DNA from: Escherichia coli | GTDB lineage: Bacteria; Pseudomonadota; Gammaproteobacteria; Enterobacterales; Enterobacteriaceae | Assembly (NCBI RefSeq): GCF_030013595.1 | Contig: NZ_CP122768.1 | Direction: 5' to 3' (one strand) | DNA: 64,000 bases | Program-made: the position numbers and the translations under genes | In this document: positions 3,419 through 59,883 of the stretch, in pieces | Position numbering within the stretch: position 1 is the stretch's first letter | Layout of the letters: each line of letters starts with the position of its first letter | The notes under the pieces: model-generated | What the model was told of the DNA's origin: nothing | Database searches by the model: none | Seen by the model: only the letters and a program-made list of their open reading frames with translations

Positions 3419-4960
3419 ATGGAGATCTCCTGGGGCCGCGCGCTATGGCGCAATTTTTTGGGCCAGTCCCCCGACTGGTACAAACTCGCCCTCATCATTT
3501 TCTTAATCGTAAATCCGTTAATTTTCCTCATCAGCCCTTTCGTCGCTGGCTGGTTGCTGGTAGCGGAATTTATTTTCACTCTGGCGATGGCCCTGAAATG
3601 CTACCCGCTACTCCCCGGTGGTCTGCTGGCTATCGAAGCGGTATTCATCGGCATGACCAGCGCGGAACACGTCCGTGAAGAGGTGGCGGCAAATCTTGAA
3701 GTCTTGCTGTTACTGATGTTTATGGTGGCGGGTATCTATTTTATGAAACAGCTATTGCTGTTCATATTTACCCGTTTGCTGTTAAGCATTCGCTCCAAAA
3801 TGCTGCTGTCGCTCTCTTTTTGCGTGGCGGCGGCGTTCCTCTCCGCGTTCCTCGATGCCTTAACCGTCGTGGCGGTGGTGATCAGCGTTGCAGTCGGTTT
3901 TTATGGGATTTATCACCGCGTAGCCTCTTCCCGTACCGAAGATACCGACCTGCAAGACGATAGTCATATCGACAAGCATTACAAAGTGGTTCTGGAACAG
4001 TTCCGTGGCTTTCTGCGTAGCCTGATGATGCATGCCGGTGTCGGCACCGCATTAGGCGGCGTGATGACCATGGTGGGCGAACCACAGAACCTGATCATCG
4101 CTAAAGCGGCTGGCTGGCATTTTGGCGATTTCTTCCTGCGCATGTCGCCAGTGACCGTTCCGGTTCTGATTTGTGGCCTGTTAACCTGCCTGCTGGTAGA
4201 GAAGCTGCGTTGGTTTGGCTATGGTGAAACGCTGCCGGAGAAAGTCCGCGAAGTACTGCAACAGTTTGACGATCAAAGCCGCCACCAGCGTACCCGTCAG
4301 GATAAAATCCGTCTGATTGTCCAAGCGATTATTGGCGTCTGGCTGGTGACTGCGCTGGCGTTGCATCTGGCGGAAGTTGGCTTGATTGGTTTGTCGGTCA
4401 TTATTCTGGCGACATCATTGACCGGTGTCACCGATGAACATGCTATCGGTAAAGCCTTCACCGAATCTCTGCCATTCACCGCACTGTTGACGGTGTTTTT
4501 CTCGGTAGTCGCGGTGATTATCGACCAACAACTGTTTTCGCCGATTATTCAGTTTGTGTTGCAGGCATCGGAACATGCTCAGCTGTCGCTGTTCTATATT
4601 TTCAACGGTCTGCTGTCATCCATTTCGGATAACGTCTTCGTGGGGACGATTTATATCAACGAAGCGAAAGCGGCAATGGAAAGCGGCGCTATCACGTTGA
4701 AGCAATACGAGCTGCTGGCGGTCGCCATTAATACCGGTACCAATCTGCCCTCTGTCGCTACGCCGAACGGTCAGGCTGCGTTCCTGTTCCTGCTGACCTC
4801 TGCACTCGCGCCATTGATTCGCCTCTCTTATGGCCGCATGGTGTGGATGGCCCTGCCTTACACCCTCGTCCTGACACTCGTCGGACTACTTTGCGTCGAG
4901 TTTACGCTTGCCCCTGTAACCGAATGGTTTATGCAAATGGGCTGGATAGCAACGCTTTGA
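3419..4960 (+). CDS. nhaB: Na+/H+ antiporter NhaB
   Basis: ORF 3365..4960 trimmed to ATG 3419 ([28 protein letters not shown]...), 513 aa polytopic membrane protein matching NhaB. Confidence 0.92.
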
Positions 4961-5643: not shown

Positions 5644-5669
5644 AGCGCTCCTGCGGGAGCGCTTTTTTG
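5644..5669 (+). terminator. dsbB intrinsic terminator
   Basis: AGCGCTCCtgcGGGAGCGCT hairpin followed by TTTTTT immediately after dsbB stop. Confidence 0.65.
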
Positions 5670-6379
5670 TGCACAGAAAACCCCCAGCTAGGCTGGGGGT
5701 TCCGGAAAGCTTTCAGCTTTGAGCCAGTTATTAAAACCCCTTTTGATTTGTTAAAACACCTTGCGGTCTGGCAACTGCAAGTGTCAAACAAGAAATCAAA
5801 AGGGGGTCCCAATGGGGGACGAAAAGAGCTTAGCGCACACCCGCTGGAACTGTAAATATCACATAGTTTTTGCGCCGAAATACCGAAGACTGGCGTTTTA
5901 CGGAGAGAAGCGTAGGGCGATAGGCAGTATTTTGAGAAAGCTGTGTGAGTGGAAAAGCGTACGGATTCTGGAAGCAGAGTGCTGCGCAGATCATATCCAT
6001 ATGCTTGTGGAAATCCCACCCAAAATGAGCGTATCCGGCTTTATGGGATATCTGAAAGGGAAAAGCAGTCTGATGCTTTACGAGCAGTTTGGGGATTTGA
6101 AATTCAAATACAGAAACAGGGAGTTCTGGTGCCGAGGGTACTATGTCGATACGGTGGGTAAGAACACGGCGAAGATACAGGACTACATAAAGCACCAGCT
6201 TGAAGAGGATAAAATGGGGGAGCAGTTATCGATTCCATATCCGGGCAGCCCGTTTACGGGCCGTAAGTAACGAAGTTGAATGCAAATGTCAGATCGTATG
6301 CGCCTGTTAGGGCGCGGCTGGTAACAGAGCCTTACAGGCGCATTTGAAAAACCTCCGGCTATGCCGGAGGATATTTATT
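5664..6379 (+). mobile_element. IS200-family insertion sequence, copy A (about 716 bp)
   Basis: Boundaries defined by where this copy and the inverted copy at 30331-31046 stop matching; contains Y1 transposase gene and terminal hairpin CCCCCAGCtaGGCTGGGGG; starts right after the dsbB terminator T-run. Confidence 0.78.
5812..6270 (+). CDS. tnpA: IS200 Y1 (HUH) transposase TnpA
   Basis: MGDEKSLAHTRWNCKYHIVFAPKYRR...CCADHIHMLVEIPPKMSVSGFMGYLKGKSS...YRNREFWCRGYYVDTVGKN; HxH motif and catalytic Tyr region typical of IS200 TnpA (152 aa). Confidence 0.88.
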   Translation: MGDEKSLAHTRWNCKYHIVFAPKYRRLAFYGEKRRAIGSILRKLCEWKSVRILEAECCADHIHMLVEIPPKMSVSGFMGYLKGKSSLMLYEQFGDLKFKYRNREFWCRGYYVDTVGKNTAKIQDYIKHQLEEDKMGEQLSIPYPGSPFTGRK

Positions 6380-19702: not shown

Positions 19703-22351
19703 TCAGAACTTATATTTCAGGCCCACCATCATTGCGGTGTCATTGTAGCCATTATCACCCAGCTGCACGCCCACATTACCCCAGACGCTGGCCGCCGGAT
19801 TCAGATTGCCATTTACGCCAAGTTTAATTTCCCCCAGATTACGCGCCCCGTCTTGTTCAACTTTCACACCGTTCATTGAGACAGCAAAATCTTTACTGTT
19901 ATGGATCCAGTTCATTTCAACAAAAGGTTCAAAGTCGTCACCGTGCGGACCGCTGTTTTTCTCCTGAGTACGAATAAAGGTGCGGAAGCCGAGTCGGGTC
20001 TGGATGTTGTTATTTGCGTCATTCTCAATACGTGAGCCATTGGCTTCCGTGTGCGCATTATGATCGACGCCCATCCAGATAGCCTGTGCCTGTGGCTGGA
20101 AGATCCACGTATATTTCGCCGCTTCCAGACCAAAGGATTTATTCAGGGCAAAACCGTAACCCGCTTCCAGCGAGACGGTTGCACCTTTCGCGCTATAGGA
20201 TTCATAGGCTAACTCATCCCCTTTCACCGAGTTTTTAAACCAGCTATATTGCGCCCAGGCGTCAATGTATGCGCCTTTTTTACTGATGTCATCGGCAAAC
20301 CCGGTGGCATACAGCCCTGCGCTATAGCCTCTGACACTCCCTTTCGAACGATAATCCGACACGCTGGAATGAGTTGAGTTGTAGTCGCGGGCATAACCAG
20401 CCAACACTCCCAAACGCCAACTGTCACTGTCGGTAAAACCACCGGTTAACAGATCCGCCCCTAACTGCGAGACGTAGCGATGCGAGGTCGTTCTCAACTG
20501 TCCGTTGCTGTCACGCCAGGCATTATGCCCGCCAATTTGTCGTAGCCAAAGTCGGTTTGAACGCTCCTGTTCAGTTACAGGATCGATGTAGCGCGTTTCA
20601 CCTACACGATCGTTCAGACGCATAACAAAAAGAGTGTTAGCGGCTGCCAGGTTGGCGACGTAACTTCCAGCTTCGGGGCGCAGAACGGGAGTAGGCGCAA
20701 CAGTAGGCGCTGAACTTCCTCCGGAGTTTGTTTCACCGCCGCTCGTTGCCTGGAAGTTAGTTAGATACCAGTTTTTATTGGTCGCTTCGGTATTACCTCG
20801 GGTTAATGAATATTCGTAGGCACCGGCGAAAATCCTCGAATCCTTAATAAATTCCCCATTTGATTCCCCCTCAACGCTGATAATCTCTATCCCATTTAAC
20901 GTGTAAGCCCCGCTGCCTCCTGCATTGGTAACTTTAACTCGGGTTGTTCCGGAGGTATTTCCATTAATAACGACTTTATCCGTAGCTGAATTATCATCAC
21001 CCAATTCAGTTCTGAGATGCAATACGCCATTATTACCAACGTAATTTTCAGTTATTGTTAACCTTGTTGGTTCGAAATCCTTTCCATCTGCCCGGGAAAT
21101 ATAGACCGTACTATTGTCAACCGTGAGCTTGCTCACCGTTGAGTCAGCTTTAATATCCCAGGTACTATTATCTGAAAGCGACAGATAGGTATGAGTGCTA
21201 TCATCTGTTGAAAGATTGGCTGAACCCGTTATTTTTGAATTAGATGCATCGATGGACAAATGACCTTTAATATTATTGATAAAAACATCTGCAGCCGATG
21301 ATACCTCACTATCCGTAATGGTCACGTTACTCGTCTCATTTTTATTGTAGAGGATTTCATTTACTGACCGTAGTGAGCTACCAGATAAAATATCTACCGT
21401 TGCTTCCTGACCATTTATGGAAGACTCCAGCACAATTCCAGCCCCCTGATGCGCGACTGCAGATGTATTTTTCAGCGTCACCTTGCCGCCATTATAAATT
21501 TTAGCAATCGCGGCGTCAGGACCCGTTGTATGAATTTCTCCCTGGTTAAATGAAACTGTCCCCTGGCGAGCAGCGATGGCATGAGCATTGTCCCCATGCG
21601 TGGTAATATCAACATCGGTTAATGTAACGCTGGCATTGGTATAATCAAGCTTGTCATCAGCCTTGACGACAGTGCCATTAGCGTACGCGGCATAACTTTC
21701 TGTTCCGTGGGTTGTTATCTCCCCTTTTGCCATATCCAGTTTTGCTATGGCGTTATTTTCATTACTTCCTGTATCGGCAGTACTTTCTTCATCAAGAGAA
21801 GATACACACGCACGCGCGCTTCCGGGAGATGCACACGCAAGAACGCCGACTGCGTGATTACCCGCAGTAACAATAAAAGTATTATTTCCGTCAGAAAAAG
21901 AGGGGGTAACCGAACCGTCAGAGTTGACTCTTATTATGGTATCAGTATTCAGGTTTCCATCAACTTGACTTAACAAACCAACAGAATAATCTCCCGTCGT
22001 GACAATCGTATTATTACCCCGCAAAGTGACAGCACCGCCATATTCACTTACGACTGCGCTAGCTGTATATACTTTGCTTAGAGGACTATTGTCAGAAGGA
22101 TATAAACCGCCCGTTGTTACAATGACGCCATTGTTAATGGTTAAATTGCTACCCTCTCCTGCAACAGATACACCGTAACTTCCATTACCCGTTGTTATAA
22201 CTAGCGCATTATCAATATCTTTTACTTCTCTATCTTTTATTGCCACAGCATGTTTATGTTCCTCGTGCTGAATAAACTGATCAGCATATGCATTACCCAC
22301 CGCCAAAGCAATAAGTCCTAAACTAAACCCGGGGAGTTTTTTCAGTTTCAT
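19703..22351 (-). CDS. Autotransporter adhesin, apparently intact; sits at the ymgF/ymgD position where K-12 is recalled to carry the ycgH pseudogene
   Basis: 882-aa ORF, ATG 22351, signal peptide MKLKKLPGFSLGLIALAVGNAYA, C-terminal beta-barrel ending ...MMVGLKYKF. Confidence 0.82.
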   Translation of the reverse strand: MKLKKLPGFSLGLIALAVGNAYADQFIQHEEHKHAVAIKDREVKDIDNALVITTGNGSYGVSVAGEGSNLTINNGVIVTTGGLYPSDNSPLSKVYTASAVVSEYGGAVTLRGNNTIVTTGDYSVGLLSQVDGNLNTDTIIRVNSDGSVTPSFSDGNNTFIVTAGNHAVGVLACASPGSARACVSSLDEESTADTGSNENNAIAKLDMAKGEITTHGTESYAAYANGTVVKADDKLDYTNASVTLTDVDITTHGDNAHAIAARQGTVSFNQGEIHTTGPDAAIAKIYNGGKVTLKNTSAVAHQGAGIVLESSINGQEATVDILSGSSLRSVNEILYNKNETSNVTITDSEVSSAADVFINNIKGHLSIDASNSKITGSANLSTDDSTHTYLSLSDNSTWDIKADSTVSKLTVDNSTVYISRADGKDFEPTRLTITENYVGNNGVLHLRTELGDDNSATDKVVINGNTSGTTRVKVTNAGGSGAYTLNGIEIISVEGESNGEFIKDSRIFAGAYEYSLTRGNTEATNKNWYLTNFQATSGGETNSGGSSAPTVAPTPVLRPEAGSYVANLAAANTLFVMRLNDRVGETRYIDPVTEQERSNRLWLRQIGGHNAWRDSNGQLRTTSHRYVSQLGADLLTGGFTDSDSWRLGVLAGYARDYNSTHSSVSDYRSKGSVRGYSAGLYATGFADDISKKGAYIDAWAQYSWFKNSVKGDELAYESYSAKGATVSLEAGYGFALNKSFGLEAAKYTWIFQPQAQAIWMGVDHNAHTEANGSRIENDANNNIQTRLGFRTFIRTQEKNSGPHGDDFEPFVEMNWIHNSKDFAVSMNGVKVEQDGARNLGEIKLGVNGNLNPAASVWGNVGVQLGDNGYNDTAMMVGLKYKF

Positions 22352-22750
22352 AGATTAACCATCCATTCATTGGATTAACAAACATTCCTGGTCAAATAAC
22401 CTATGCGTTCAGATTATCAAAACGTAGGGTAAAGACAAAAACAAAAGCACAAAAAATTTAAATAGATAAACAGCGACAATATATAAATGATAAATAAGTC
22501 GGCATTATCATTTTTCACCTTATTTTCATGACATTGATCACTTTGAGGTGACGATTTTGTTTAACAAATAACTCTTCGACATCACAATCATTGATAGTTG
22601 CCATAGAAATTATTTCGATGATATATAAAACCAACTATGATAACACCAGGGTTGACAACTATTTGCGCAATAATTCCTTTCCTTCAATGATCCAGGCGTT
22701 CACTGTCAGCACCCCATTCAGCCGCATACTGACAGTGAGAAACTGAAAGA

Positions 22751-22969
22751 TTATTGCTGATCCCTGTGGCTGACGAGTCTTTCCCTTAATCGATTAACCA
22801 GATTGATCGCCAGCCAAACAAGGGCATTAAGCAAATTTATCGTCACAAGCACTTCTCCCAGCCCGGTACTGGGTTTTGCAATAAGAATGACCAGGAGGGT
22901 GATCAGCATAAATGCAATGGAAAAGATGATATAGAGAGTGAAATAATCCAGATTATTACTATTGTTCAT
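22751..22969 (-). CDS. ymgF: Inner membrane protein YmgF
   Basis: MNNSNNLDYFTLYIIFSIAFMLITLLVILIAKPSTGLGEVLVTINLLNALVWLAINLVNRLRERLVSHRDQQ (72 aa). Confidence 0.82.
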   Translation of the reverse strand: MNNSNNLDYFTLYIIFSIAFMLITLLVILIAKPSTGLGEVLVTINLLNALVWLAINLVNRLRERLVSHRDQQ

Positions 22970-23100
22970 GCTACTAATGGCAATCCTGTCAAAACTTTCA
23001 AACAATTATAGCAAACAAAATAATGAACAATAGTAACAAGAGGCAACGAGCTAATTAGCTGTCTATAATTACACCGCACCATGGCCTTACTGATCGATTT

Positions 23101-24624
23101 TCACTCAACCACAACCTTCACCTTCGGTTTAGAAAGGATAATTTTGACCAAGTCGATGTATGTTACCGGTTTATAGAAATAATAACCCTGCTGAAATGTG
23201 ATATTATTTTGATTCAGATAGTCAAGTTGTTCTTTCGTTTCGACACCTTCAGCGACGATACTGATCGAAAGTTTACGCGCCAGATCCAATACACAATCCA
23301 GAATCCGAGTTGATTCTGGGTCTGCGTTTACGCGGCCAACGAAACTGTGATCAATTTTGATATAATCAATATGCAGGTCATGCAGATAAGAAAGCCCTGA
23401 GTAGCCAGTACCGAAATCATCCAGCGCGATGACAAAACCATTTTCATGCAGAATGTTCAACCGCTGAACCAGACTTTCATCAACATTTAATGGCTCACGC
23501 TCGGTAACTTCCAGAACGAGGTTTAAATCGCGACGGGTAAAACTGTCACGGTAATTTAAGCACTCGTCGACAAATGTCGGCGAAATAATATGCGAGGCGC
23601 TAAAATTAATCCCAATATGAAAACCTTCCGGCAGTTTACTCGCGATAGCGTTCATCTGTCTGGCAACCTGATTCATGAGGCTTTGCGTAAGCGGAAGGAT
23701 TAATCCGGATTTTTCAGCAAGTGGAATAAATGCCGCGGGTGATATATATCCACCGTGGGGGTGTTTCCAGCGGGCTAACACCTCAACTCCCCGCAATGTC
23801 CCTTCCCGACCATTTACCACAGGTTGGTAAAAAGGGACGATCTCCCCATTATTTATAGCCCGTCGCAGGATCTCTTCAGGCGTTGCGCTTTTATTGAAAT
23901 ACCTATCAAGCAGCAAAGCAGCGGCGCAGGCGATTAACAGAATAAATATCAATATCCCAAAGCCTTTATCGATAAGTCTGTAGAAGCTAAAGAGTGGTGG
24001 CGGGTTAAAGATAATAGTGAAATTATATTTTGTGGAGTGAACCTTCTCGGTATAGGGATAACGTCCATTAAGCGTCATCACATCACCCGTAGGTCCAATA
24101 ATGTCATCCGCCACGCGTAATACATACCTTACCCCTTTCAAGGGTACATTAAGCGCCCCGCGAATATGCTGATCACTTATCGTAACCAAAATGCGCGTAT
24201 CTGCAAATTGGCTCTGATAGAGCAGGATAGGTAATCTATTAACGGTGTCGATTGCCGGAGCCAACAGTAAATTACTGTCCGGGAAAACAGGAATACGAGA
24301 CAGCAGGACCCGATTCCCCGGTAAGGATGTACACCAGACCGTTCCCTGTTTGAGAATGATGATTGTGCGCAGGTGAGGTTTCAGAGCTGCTTCAGTGCCA
24401 AGCTGATATTGCTCCTCGAGGTCGCATTCCTTCCCGGCAATGTTAACCGCTGTTTGAGTCGCCTGTGACGCTTCTTCAAGTATATGATTGATATTGTTGG
24501 CGGCATATCTCGCTCCCGCCAGGTACTCTGCTTTTGCGGAATACCAGAGCTGGATGTTCAAAATAGCGACACCGGTTATAAACAAGCATATCGCAATGAA
24601 GATGGGTATGAGTGTATTGCGCAT
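23101..24624 (-). CDS. pdeG: c-di-GMP phosphodiesterase PdeG (YcgG), CSS-EAL type
   Basis: 507-aa ORF with N-terminal TM helix and C-terminal EAL domain (...EVLARWKHP..., ...IALDDFGTGYS...). Confidence 0.85.
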   Translation of the reverse strand: MRNTLIPIFIAICLFITGVAILNIQLWYSAKAEYLAGARYAANNINHILEEASQATQTAVNIAGKECDLEEQYQLGTEAALKPHLRTIIILKQGTVWCTSLPGNRVLLSRIPVFPDSNLLLAPAIDTVNRLPILLYQSQFADTRILVTISDQHIRGALNVPLKGVRYVLRVADDIIGPTGDVMTLNGRYPYTEKVHSTKYNFTIIFNPPPLFSFYRLIDKGFGILIFILLIACAAALLLDRYFNKSATPEEILRRAINNGEIVPFYQPVVNGREGTLRGVEVLARWKHPHGGYISPAAFIPLAEKSGLILPLTQSLMNQVARQMNAIASKLPEGFHIGINFSASHIISPTFVDECLNYRDSFTRRDLNLVLEVTEREPLNVDESLVQRLNILHENGFVIALDDFGTGYSGLSYLHDLHIDYIKIDHSFVGRVNADPESTRILDCVLDLARKLSISIVAEGVETKEQLDYLNQNNITFQQGYYFYKPVTYIDLVKIILSKPKVKVVVE

Positions 24625-29462: not shown

Positions 29463-29513
29463 AAAAAACAACGGGCGTGCCATACGCCCGTTTCAATACT
29501 TAACGCACATGTG
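29463..29513. repeat. Third, diverged copy of the icd 3'-end/terminator (att-associated) element
   Basis: aaaaACAACGGGCGTGccATACGCCCGTTTCAATAcTTAACgcACATGTg aligns with 31042-31090 and 58582-58630 (icd terminator hairpin plus last icd codons). Confidence 0.7.
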
Positions 29514-30330: not shown

Positions 30331-31046
30331 AATAAATATCCTCCGGCATAGCCGGAGGTTTTTCAAATGCGCCTGTAAGGCTCTGTTACCAGCCGCGCCC
30401 TAACAGGCGCATACGATCTGACATTTGCATTCAACTTCGTTACTTACGGCCCGTAAACGGGCTGCCCGGATATGGAATCGATAACTGCTCCCCCATTTTA
30501 TCCTCTTCAAGCTGGTGCTTTATGTAGTCCTGTATCTTCGCCGTGTTCTTACCCACCGTATCGACATAGTACCCTCGGCACCAGAACTCCCTGTTTCTGT
30601 ATTTGAATTTCAAATCCCCAAACTGCTCGTAAAGCATCAGACTGCTTTTCCCTTTCAGATATCCCATAAAGCCGGATACGCTCATTTTGGGTGGGATTTC
30701 CACAAGCATATGGATATGATCTGCGCAGCACTCTGCTTCCAGAATCCGTACGCTTTTCCACTCACACAGCTTTCTCAAAATACTGCCTATCGCCCTACGC
30801 TTCTCTCCGTAAAACGCCAGTCTTCGGTATTTCGGCGCAAAAACTATGTGATATTTACAGTTCCAGCGGGTGTGCGCTAAGCTCTTTTCGTCCCCCATTG
30901 GGACCCCCTTTTGATTTCTTGTTTGACACTTGCAGTTGCCAGACCGCAAGGTGTTTTAACAAATCAAAAGGGGTTTTAATAACTGGCTCAAAGCTGAAAG
31001 CTTTCCGGAACCCCCAGCCTAGCTGGGGGTTTTCTGTGCACAAAAA
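30331..31046 (-). mobile_element. IS200-family insertion sequence, copy B (inverted relative to copy A)
   Basis: Reverse complement of 30331-31046 matches 5664-6379 essentially base for base; encodes an identical TnpA; one end abuts the icdC terminator hairpin. Confidence 0.8.
30440..30898 (-). CDS. tnpA: IS200 Y1 transposase TnpA (second copy)
   Basis: Protein identical to the ORF at 5812..6270. Confidence 0.88.
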   Translation of the reverse strand: MGDEKSLAHTRWNCKYHIVFAPKYRRLAFYGEKRRAIGSILRKLCEWKSVRILEAECCADHIHMLVEIPPKMSVSGFMGYLKGKSSLMLYEQFGDLKFKYRNREFWCRGYYVDTVGKNTAKIQDYIKHQLEEDKMGEQLSIPYPGSPFTGRK

Positions 31047-31093
31047 CAACGGGCGTGTTATACGCCCGTTTCAATATTTAACACATGTAGAGA

Positions 31094-31257
31094 TTACATG
31101 TTCTTGATGATCGCATCACCAAACTCGCTACATTTCAGCAATTTAGCGCCTTCCATCAGACGTTCGAAGTCATAGGTTACGGTCTTGGCGTTGATTGCGC
31201 CTTCCATACCTTTAACAATCAGGTCTGCGGCTTCAGTCCAGCCCATATGGCGTAACA
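31094..31257 (-). pseudogene. icdC: icdC: displaced chromosomal 3' fragment of icd (last ~53 codons), left by prophage integration
   Basis: 31094-31254 aligns with the 3' end of intact icd (58633-58796) with scattered substitutions; similarity stops near 31255; preceded by the same terminator hairpin (31048-31070). Confidence 0.85.
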
Positions 31258-58581: not shown

Positions 58582-58609
58582 AAAACAACGGGCGTGTTAT
58601 ACGCCCGTT
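58582..58609 (-). terminator. icd intrinsic terminator (phage-supplied copy)
   Basis: Minus strand: AACGGGCGTATAACACGCCCGTT followed by gtttt, 24 nt after icd stop. Confidence 0.65.
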
Positions 58610-58632
58610 TCAATATTTAACACATGTAGAGA

Positions 58633-59883
58633 TTACATGTTCTTGATGATTGCATCACCAAACTCGCTGCATTTCAGCAGTTTAGCACCTTCCATCAGAC
58701 GTTCGAAGTCATAGGTTACGGTCTTGGCGTTGATTGCGCCTTCCATACCTTTAACAATCAAGTCTGCGGCTTCAGTCCAGCCCATATGGCGCAGCATCAT
58801 CTCAGCGGAGAGAATAATAGAGCCTGGGTTTACTTTGTCCTGACCGGCATATTTCGGCGCAGTACCGTGGGTGGCTTCAAACAGGGCGCATTCGTCACCG
58901 ATGTTTGCGCCTGGGGCGATACCGATACCGCCGACCTGTGCAGCCAGAGCGTCAGAAATGTAGTCACCGTTCAGGTTCATACAGGCGATAACATCATATT
59001 CAGCCGGACGCAGCAGGATCTGTTGCAGGAATGCGTCAGCAATCACGTCTTTAATGACGATCTCTTTGCCGGTATTCGGGTTTTTAACTTTCAGCCACGG
59101 GCCGCCGTCGATCAGTTCACCGCCAAACTCTTCACGCGCCAGCTGGTAGCCCCAGTCTTTAAACGCGCCTTCGGTGAACTTCATGATGTTGCCTTTGTGC
59201 ACCAGGGTCACAGAGTCACGATCGTTAGCAATTGCGTATTCGATCGCTGCACGAACCAGACGTTTGGTGCCTTCTTCCGAACACGGCTTAATACCGATAC
59301 CGCAATGTTCCGGGAAGCGAATTTTCTTCACGCCCATCTCTTCACGCAGGAATTTAATCACTTTCTCGGCGTCGGCAGAGTCAGCTTTCCATTCGATACC
59401 CGCATAAATGTCTTCCGAGTTTTCACGGAAGATAACCATATCGGTCAGTTCAGGGTGTTTAACCGGGCTTGGAGTGCCCTGATAGTAACGTACCGGACGC
59501 AGGCAGATGTAGAGATCCAGTTCCTGACGCAGGGCAACGTTCAGAGAGCGAATACCGCCACCAACCGGAGTGGTCAGCGGACCTTTAATGGCAACGCGAT
59601 ATTCACGAATCAGATCAAGGGTTTCAGCAGGCAGCCAGACATCCTGACCATAAACCTGTGTGGATTTTTCACCGGTGTAAATTTCCATCCAGGAGATTTT
59701 ACGCTCGCCTTTATAGGCTTTCTCGACTGCAGCGTCGACCACTTTCAGCATGGCTGGGGTTACATCTACACCGATTCCATCACCTTCAATGTAAGGGATA
59801 ATCGGATTTTCAGGAACGTTGAGTTTGCCGTTTTGCAGGGTGATCTTCTTGCCTTGTGCCGGAACAACTACTTTACTTTCCAT
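58633..59883 (-). CDS. icd: Isocitrate dehydrogenase (NADP), 3' end supplied by prophage
   Basis: 416-aa [76 protein letters not shown]... Confidence 0.95.

Follow-up and report, generated by a model that had tools for sequence, protein, structure and literature searches.

Between ymgF and a downstream autotransporter gene, the 64,000-nt stretch of Escherichia coli DNA analyzed here (contig NZ_CP122768.1, hereafter the window) carries a short inverted repeat. The locus raises the question of whether this repeat acts as DNA, such as a protein-binding site or a member of a dispersed repeat family, or as RNA. The most likely answer is that it is an ordinary conserved RNA stem-loop that ends the E. 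coli ymgF transcript. The genes around the repeat are arranged as follows.

22751–22969, minus strand: ymgF, encoding a 72-aa cell-division-associated inner-membrane protein (ORF list; RefSeq annotations of strains GN25 and MG1655)
22751–22753, minus strand: ymgF stop codon, TAA
19703–22351, minus strand: ycgH-type autotransporter, an intact 882-aa ORF annotated in GN25 as "ECIAI39_1904 family autotransporter adhesin"
23101–24624: pdeG, upstream of ymgF

The stem starts 12 nt past the ymgF TAA on the ymgF coding (minus) strand, and 349 nt separate the end of the hairpin from the autotransporter start codon (22351). The ORF list and the RefSeq annotation thereby confirm the initial annotation, which had placed the repeat downstream of ymgF and ahead of the autotransporter (ycgH) promoter region. 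At 34% GC, the 399-nt intergenic region is AT-rich, and it is 100% identical in E. coli strain GN25. By alignment and annotation, the equivalent of the hairpin in MG1655 is located at 1219214–1219252 on the plus strand, where no annotation was present in the records inspected. The autotransporter of the window corresponds to ycgH, a gene that is frameshifted or a pseudogene in K-12 and fragmented in B2-type strains. In genomic SELEX papers, H-NS and sigma-70 RNA polymerase are reported to bind the ymgF>ycgH spacer and minor-sigma RNA polymerases the ycgG>ymgF spacer, and a sigma-S ChIP-seq study reports a peak at ycgH (1219400–1219949). The sigma-70 promoter given by the Ishihama group for ymgF>ycgH (TTGACA-19-TATAAG) was not found in the intergenic region, and its sole match, with one mismatch, was inside ycgH. 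On the pdeG side of ymgF, published K-12 Term-seq data place antisense RNA 3′ ends inside pdeG (MG1655 1218676 and 1218619, minus strand, corresponding to about 23222–23333 on the window plus strand) and a Rho-termination region at MG1655 1218730 in the pdeG antisense. These 3′ ends imply that an antisense transcript enters the pdeG 3′ end from the ymgF side, and a promoter-like site was found at 22997–23024 on the plus strand, the same strand as this transcript.

A repeat finder returned perfect 10-nt arms, TCACTGTCAG at 22700–22709 and CTGACAGTGA at 22729–22738, with 19 nt between them. The initial annotation had reported a 9-bp repeat, CACTGTCAG-N19-CTGACAGTG, at 22691–22727; the motif exists and its 19-nt gap was correct, but the coordinates were about 10 nt too far to the left (the 9-nt arms are really at 22701–22709 and 22729–22737), and each perfect arm is 10 rather than 9 nt long. 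Folding the region as minus-strand RNA added the pairs U·G, A-U and U·G between 22726–22728 and 22710–22712, for a 13-pair stem with a 13-nt loop. The parts of the hairpin, read as RNA, are listed below.

22739–22750, minus strand: stop-codon-to-stem spacer of 12 nt, UCUUUCAGUUUC, in which half of the columns vary among Escherichia lineages
22729–22738, minus strand: 5′ arm of the RNA stem, UCACUGUCAG on the minus strand, containing the variable position 22732
22710–22728, minus strand: the 19 nt between the perfect arms, as delimited in the folds, with 8 of 19 columns varying between lineages
22700–22709, minus strand: 3′ arm of the RNA stem, CUGACAGUGA on the minus strand, containing 22706, the partner of 22732

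Perfect inverted repeats of 10 nt with loops of 3–30 nt gave 22 k-mer hits (~15 loci) in the whole window, compared with 1.9 ± 1.7 per window in 100 dinucleotide-preserving shuffles, and the majority of those present are not chance events. A single repeat of this kind per 64 kb could still originate by chance, with a prior of roughly 10%; such an origin is unlikely for a repeat that directly follows a stop codon and is kept in relatives. An 81-nt region containing the hairpin folded better than shuffled sequences on both strands (z = −3.1 for the minus strand and −3.95 for the plus strand).

We then compared E. coli haplotypes with loci from a scan of species-representative genomes, which returned E. 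whittamii, Escherichia sp. E1V33, the divergent "E. coli" strain SCPM-O-B-8794 and E. albertii; ycgH is absent from E. whittamii, SCPM-O-B-8794 and E. albertii. In E. whittamii, E1V33 and SCPM-O-B-8794, whose ymgF DNA is ~87% identical to the window, both 10-nt arms were unchanged and the loop and the stop-to-stem spacer had diverged. Variable columns numbered 2 of 20 in the arms, both in one pair, against 14 of 31 in the loop and spacer (Fisher p = 0.012) and 25 of 72 at ymgF third codon positions (p = 0.05). E. albertii has ymgF without the hairpin, and the sequence after its ymgF gave z = −0.77. Conservation in close relatives, which the initial annotation had proposed checking, thus extends to three lineages outside E. 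coli with identical arms and not to E. albertii.

The sole variable core pair, 22732/22706, occurs in three states: U·G in K-12-type strains and in E. whittamii, E1V33 and SCPM-O-B-8794; U-A in the window type, to which O157:H7 belongs; and C-G in strains of B2 type, among them 83972 and Nissle 1917. Since U·G is present in all three other lineages, it is presumably the ancestral state. Exact matches over 45 nt numbered 3891 for the K-12 type, 619 for the window type and 473 for the B2 type, together 99.1% of 5027 copies, and all three main haplotypes keep 10 of 10 pairs. A few of the rare E. coli haplotypes, of which ~44 exist, were sampled. One of them (strain wlxctx60) changes the loop-closing G-C to G·U, which still pairs on minus-strand RNA, and another (strain 23CRST011) changes the first extension pair from U·G to C-G and so improves the pairing on the same strand.

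These variants indicate the strand on which the structure would form, for U·G and G·U can pair in the minus-strand (ymgF-sense) RNA but become C·A mismatches on the plus strand, so that only in ymgF-sense RNA do all three states of 22732/22706 pair. The sense hairpin was predicted at −17.6 to −22.5 kcal/mol in all lineages (about −19 to −22.5 kcal/mol in E. coli), compared with −9.0 to −16.6 kcal/mol for the antisense, and RNAalifold recovered the 10-pair stem. Formal covariation was not significant, 85 of 500 shuffles equaling the observed score, because the lineages have diverged too little; 9–10 of the 13 pairs never vary. The three states at 22732/22706 are likewise only modest evidence, as G·U transitions restore pairing automatically. 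By a rough estimate, 4 of 4 pair-preserving events would have a probability of about 0.02–0.1 under no constraint.

With this evidence, the two suggestions of the initial annotation, a REP-like element or a protein-binding site, can be weighed. About two 10-nt inverted-repeat matches per 64 kb are expected by chance and the element is extragenic, which would suit a chance palindrome or a dispersed repeat such as a REP-like one. It shares with REP/BIME elements an extragenic location, imperfect palindromic symmetry and the capacity to form an RNA hairpin at a gene 3′ end, where it could stabilize the upstream mRNA. Unlike them, it is restricted to one locus and has no resemblance to the REP consensus. 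In BLAST searches with 61-nt and 45-nt segments, ~5025 of 5426 complete E. coli genomes carried it, with a median of 1 location each and a maximum of 2; the cases of two reflect duplicated regions or plasmid-borne copies of the locus. The exact arms (9-mer) did not occur in the 64-kb window outside the hairpin locus, and an Rfam scan of 21800–23600 at E ≤ 10 returned only two meaningless sub-threshold matches (a plant miRNA and a Rickettsia sRNA). The REP-like suggestion was accordingly dropped, and with the hairpin kept across four Escherichia lineages, a dispersed repeat or chance palindrome appears extremely improbable. The initial annotation had also held that a motif both unique and not conserved would speak against its suggestions; the motif is indeed unique, but its arms are kept in relatives. 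In favor of a palindromic DNA operator for a dimeric regulator of ycgH (or ymgF), the form in this strain has perfect 10-bp symmetry and lies in an AT-rich (34% GC) regulatory region with reported H-NS binding, and arm conservation alone cannot separate DNA-level from RNA-level constraint. The majority and presumably ancestral form (77% of E. coli copies and the three other lineages) is nevertheless asymmetric, with T versus C at the mirrored position, and so an imperfect DNA palindrome that makes a valid U·G pair as RNA. The derived forms, both symmetric, differ in their half-sites (CACTGTCAG in one, CACTGCCAG in the other), and a further variant gives G·U rather than a symmetric DNA change; symmetric half-sites conserved as DNA were therefore not found. 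From B-DNA geometry, the half-site centers, 29 bp (~2.8 helical turns) apart, would lie on different helix faces, a poor arrangement for a simple dimer. The element is moreover separated from the ycgH start codon by ~350 bp and is retained by lineages without ycgH. ChIP and SELEX occupancy consisted only of low-resolution reports (H-NS, sigma-70 and sigma-S) for the intergenic region or ycgH, none centered on the repeat. Protein binding therefore fits the locus less well than an RNA hairpin does, and we consider an operator improbable.

Several other candidates were rejected. Homology in other lineages stops at the stem both for a plus-strand 51-aa ORF with a TTG start (22591–22746) and for a minus-strand 22-codon ORF starting at an ATG in the loop, an ATG that the loops of the other lineages do not have. 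The stem of 10–13 bp is probably too short for an RNase III site, which needs ~20 bp, and the gap of CTGT...ACAG is 25 nt rather than the 8 nt of a LexA-type box. Three GGA motifs just after the E. coli stem, possible CsrA sites, are not conserved in other lineages. Apart from these, CACTGTCAG with up to one mismatch occurred 26 times in the whole window (10 ± 3 expected), 21 of the 26 on the plus strand. This excess probably reflects biased codon or oligonucleotide usage (CTG and CAG codons) and not a family of motifs, and none of the other CACTGTCAG-like sites in the window pairs up as an inverted repeat.

The sequence that follows the stem differs between E. coli and the other lineages. It reads AACGCCTGGATC in E. 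coli, compared with AACGTTTTTTCA in SCPM-O-B-8794, AATGTTTTATCC in E1V33 and AACGTCTTATCC in E. whittamii. No T-run follows the stem on either strand in the window, no U-tract occurs within 60 nt in E. coli, and a terminator consensus scan found no terminator-like site on either strand. The initial judgment that the repeat lacks a T-run and is not a typical terminator was thus correct, the stem being followed by ACGCCUGGAUCA. A T6 tract (AACGUUUUUU) comes directly after the stem in SCPM-O-B-8794, and a partial tract is present in E1V33. E. coli and these three lineages are homologous from upstream of ymgF across the whole hairpin, and the homology ends 1–6 nt past the stem. Beyond this point the three lineages have T-rich sequence and then a shared segment, ~137 nt or more, that is missing from E. 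coli. In E1V33, homology resumes after ~137 nt at window position 22678, upstream of ycgH, and in E. whittamii and SCPM-O-B-8794 it resumes near 19803 and 19727, next to ymgD. On the simplest reading of these alignments, ymgF once had a terminator-like hairpin with a T-rich tail, and a deletion in the E. coli lineage took the tail and left the stem, which would have been kept from then on. The E. coli hairpin would then have no T-run because this deletion (~137 nt, starting 1–6 nt after the stem) removed it.

Efficient intrinsic termination by E. coli RNA polymerase requires a U-tract, and the E. coli hairpin is for this reason probably a poor terminator. It resembles an intrinsic terminator in its fairly GC-rich stem 3′ of the stop codon and in the T6 that follows the same stem in SCPM-O-B-8794. 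It has the stable sense stem-loop after the stop codon that defines such terminators, but neither the U-tract (at least ~5 U within 8 nt), which in E. coli is gone with the ~137-nt segment, nor the short loop, its own loop of 13–19 nt being larger than the 3–8 nt of typical terminator hairpins. We regard it as an unannotated gene-end RNA hairpin of a known kind and not a REP element. Our preferred reading, to which we assign a probability of about 0.5, is that the stem-loop lies at the 3′ end of the ymgF transcript, derives from a terminator and now serves as an exonuclease barrier that defines or stabilizes the mRNA 3′ end.

In mechanistic terms, the inverted repeat, read from the minus strand, would encode an RNA stem-loop closing the ymgF transcription unit, and we infer that it is transcribed within the ymgF mRNA. 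By itself it has most likely ceased to be an efficient terminator. Transcription would instead stop farther downstream, after which the hairpin would block 3′-to-5′ exonucleases (PNPase and RNase II) and thus set the mRNA 3′ end, defining and stabilizing it. The hairpin may also pause RNA polymerase, or insulate, ahead of the ycgH promoter region. Such a role is similar to that of the 3′ stem-loops of Rho-dependent transcripts for which Dar and Sorek (2018) give evidence of protection from PNPase and RNase II. The ymgF hairpin is alike in being stable, on the sense strand, just after the CDS and without a uridine-rich tract. It is unlike them in that its downstream sequence is G-over-C rather than C-over-G, and in that its loop is longer than their distribution. 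Of the features of this class, the hairpin thus has the structure and not the C-over-G composition. Some results count against the proposed role. The ratio C/G was 0.71 over the 100 nt 3′ of the stem, which leaves no rut-like C-over-G bias, and 0.75 over the 348-nt intergenic stretch. The Term-seq supplementary tables of Adams et al. 2021 contain neither an RNA 3′ end nor a Rho (bicyclomycin-sensitive) region between MG1655 positions 1219000 and 1219399, and the SMRT-Cappable-seq supplements do not mention ymgF. If ymgF, in an H-NS-bound locus, is assumed to be expressed at a low level in laboratory cultures, this could explain the missing 3′ end.

The hairpin might instead be a functionless relic, the ancestral ymgF terminator stem whose U-tract was lost in the E. 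coli deletion too recently for the stem to have decayed. The tail missing in E. coli next to the T-rich tails of related lineages, the lack of a mapped 3′ end at the hairpin in K-12 and the ability of E. albertii to do without it are all consistent with a relic, and shallow divergence makes invariant arms weak evidence of selection. The arms are nonetheless less variable than both the loop and spacer and the ymgF third codon positions, the three haplotypes that account for nearly all E. coli copies each keep the full set of core pairs, and two lineages have independently upgraded U·G to a Watson-Crick pair, which is not the pattern of a decaying sequence; a relic is thus unlikely, if still plausible. 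It is also conceivable, though quite unlikely, that the hairpin is a still-active weak or conditional terminator or pause site that insulates the ycgH promoter from pdeG-ymgF read-through. Its stability, its location between the ymgF stop codon and the region of reported sigma-70 and sigma-S RNA polymerase and H-NS binding upstream of ycgH, and the resemblance of the same stem with T6 in SCPM-O-B-8794 to a real intrinsic terminator argue for this, against which stand the E. coli sequence, free of a U-tract for 60 nt, and the lack of a 3′ end mapped at the site.

The base of the hairpin also coincides with places where the locus has been rearranged.

22694–22699, no strand assigned: edge of the conserved block (BLAST boundaries), where homology to E. 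whittamii, E1V33 and SCPM-O-B-8794 ends
22690–22750 of the window: structural breakpoints at the hairpin base, with counterparts at ~3985–4001 of the compared locus L004 and at ~1707–1775 of loci L013–L016

At least four independent structural changes end within ~10 nt of this base: the ~137-nt loss in E. coli; the junction at which ycgH is either present or missing (E. whittamii and SCPM-O-B-8794); in E. coli strain CT01, an IS1 element inserted 6 nt after the stem, with the 5′ part of ycgH deleted; and the break in E. albertii, where homology stops at 22745, 7 nt before the stem. The hairpin could on this basis be a fragile or recombinogenic point that sets where the locus rearranges, or else a conserved cis-acting RNA that couples ymgF expression to that of the ycgH adhesin, both of which we judge decidedly improbable. 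A simpler explanation of the breakpoint clustering is that only rearrangements sparing the ymgF unit survive.

As an RNA stem-loop at the gene end, the hairpin shows where the ymgF transcription unit of E. coli probably ends and is of little importance beyond annotation. It would be a small, clear example of a terminator hairpin that has outlived its U-tract after a deletion, and one in which a U·G pair was fixed independently as U-A or C-G in different E. coli lineages. Studies of how ymgF or the ycgH autotransporter (intact in this strain) is expressed may benefit from it, and it is a possible test case for whether hairpins without U-tracts stabilize 3′ ends.

Other repeats in the window were longer. 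An IS200/IS605-type element is present as two 100% identical 716-nt copies in inverted orientation (5664–6379 and 30331–31046), 23,951 nt apart, each with a 169-aa ORF that we take to be an IS200/IS605-type (Y1) transposase. The ymgF/ycgH/min region lies entirely between the two copies, which could recombine and so invert the intervening segment. A 215-nt direct repeat, 97% identical between its copies, was found at 31043–31257 and 58582–58796, one copy abutting the IS200-type element. This repeat contains a short hairpin, AACGGGCGT-N5-ACGCCCGTT, that is found also at 29470.
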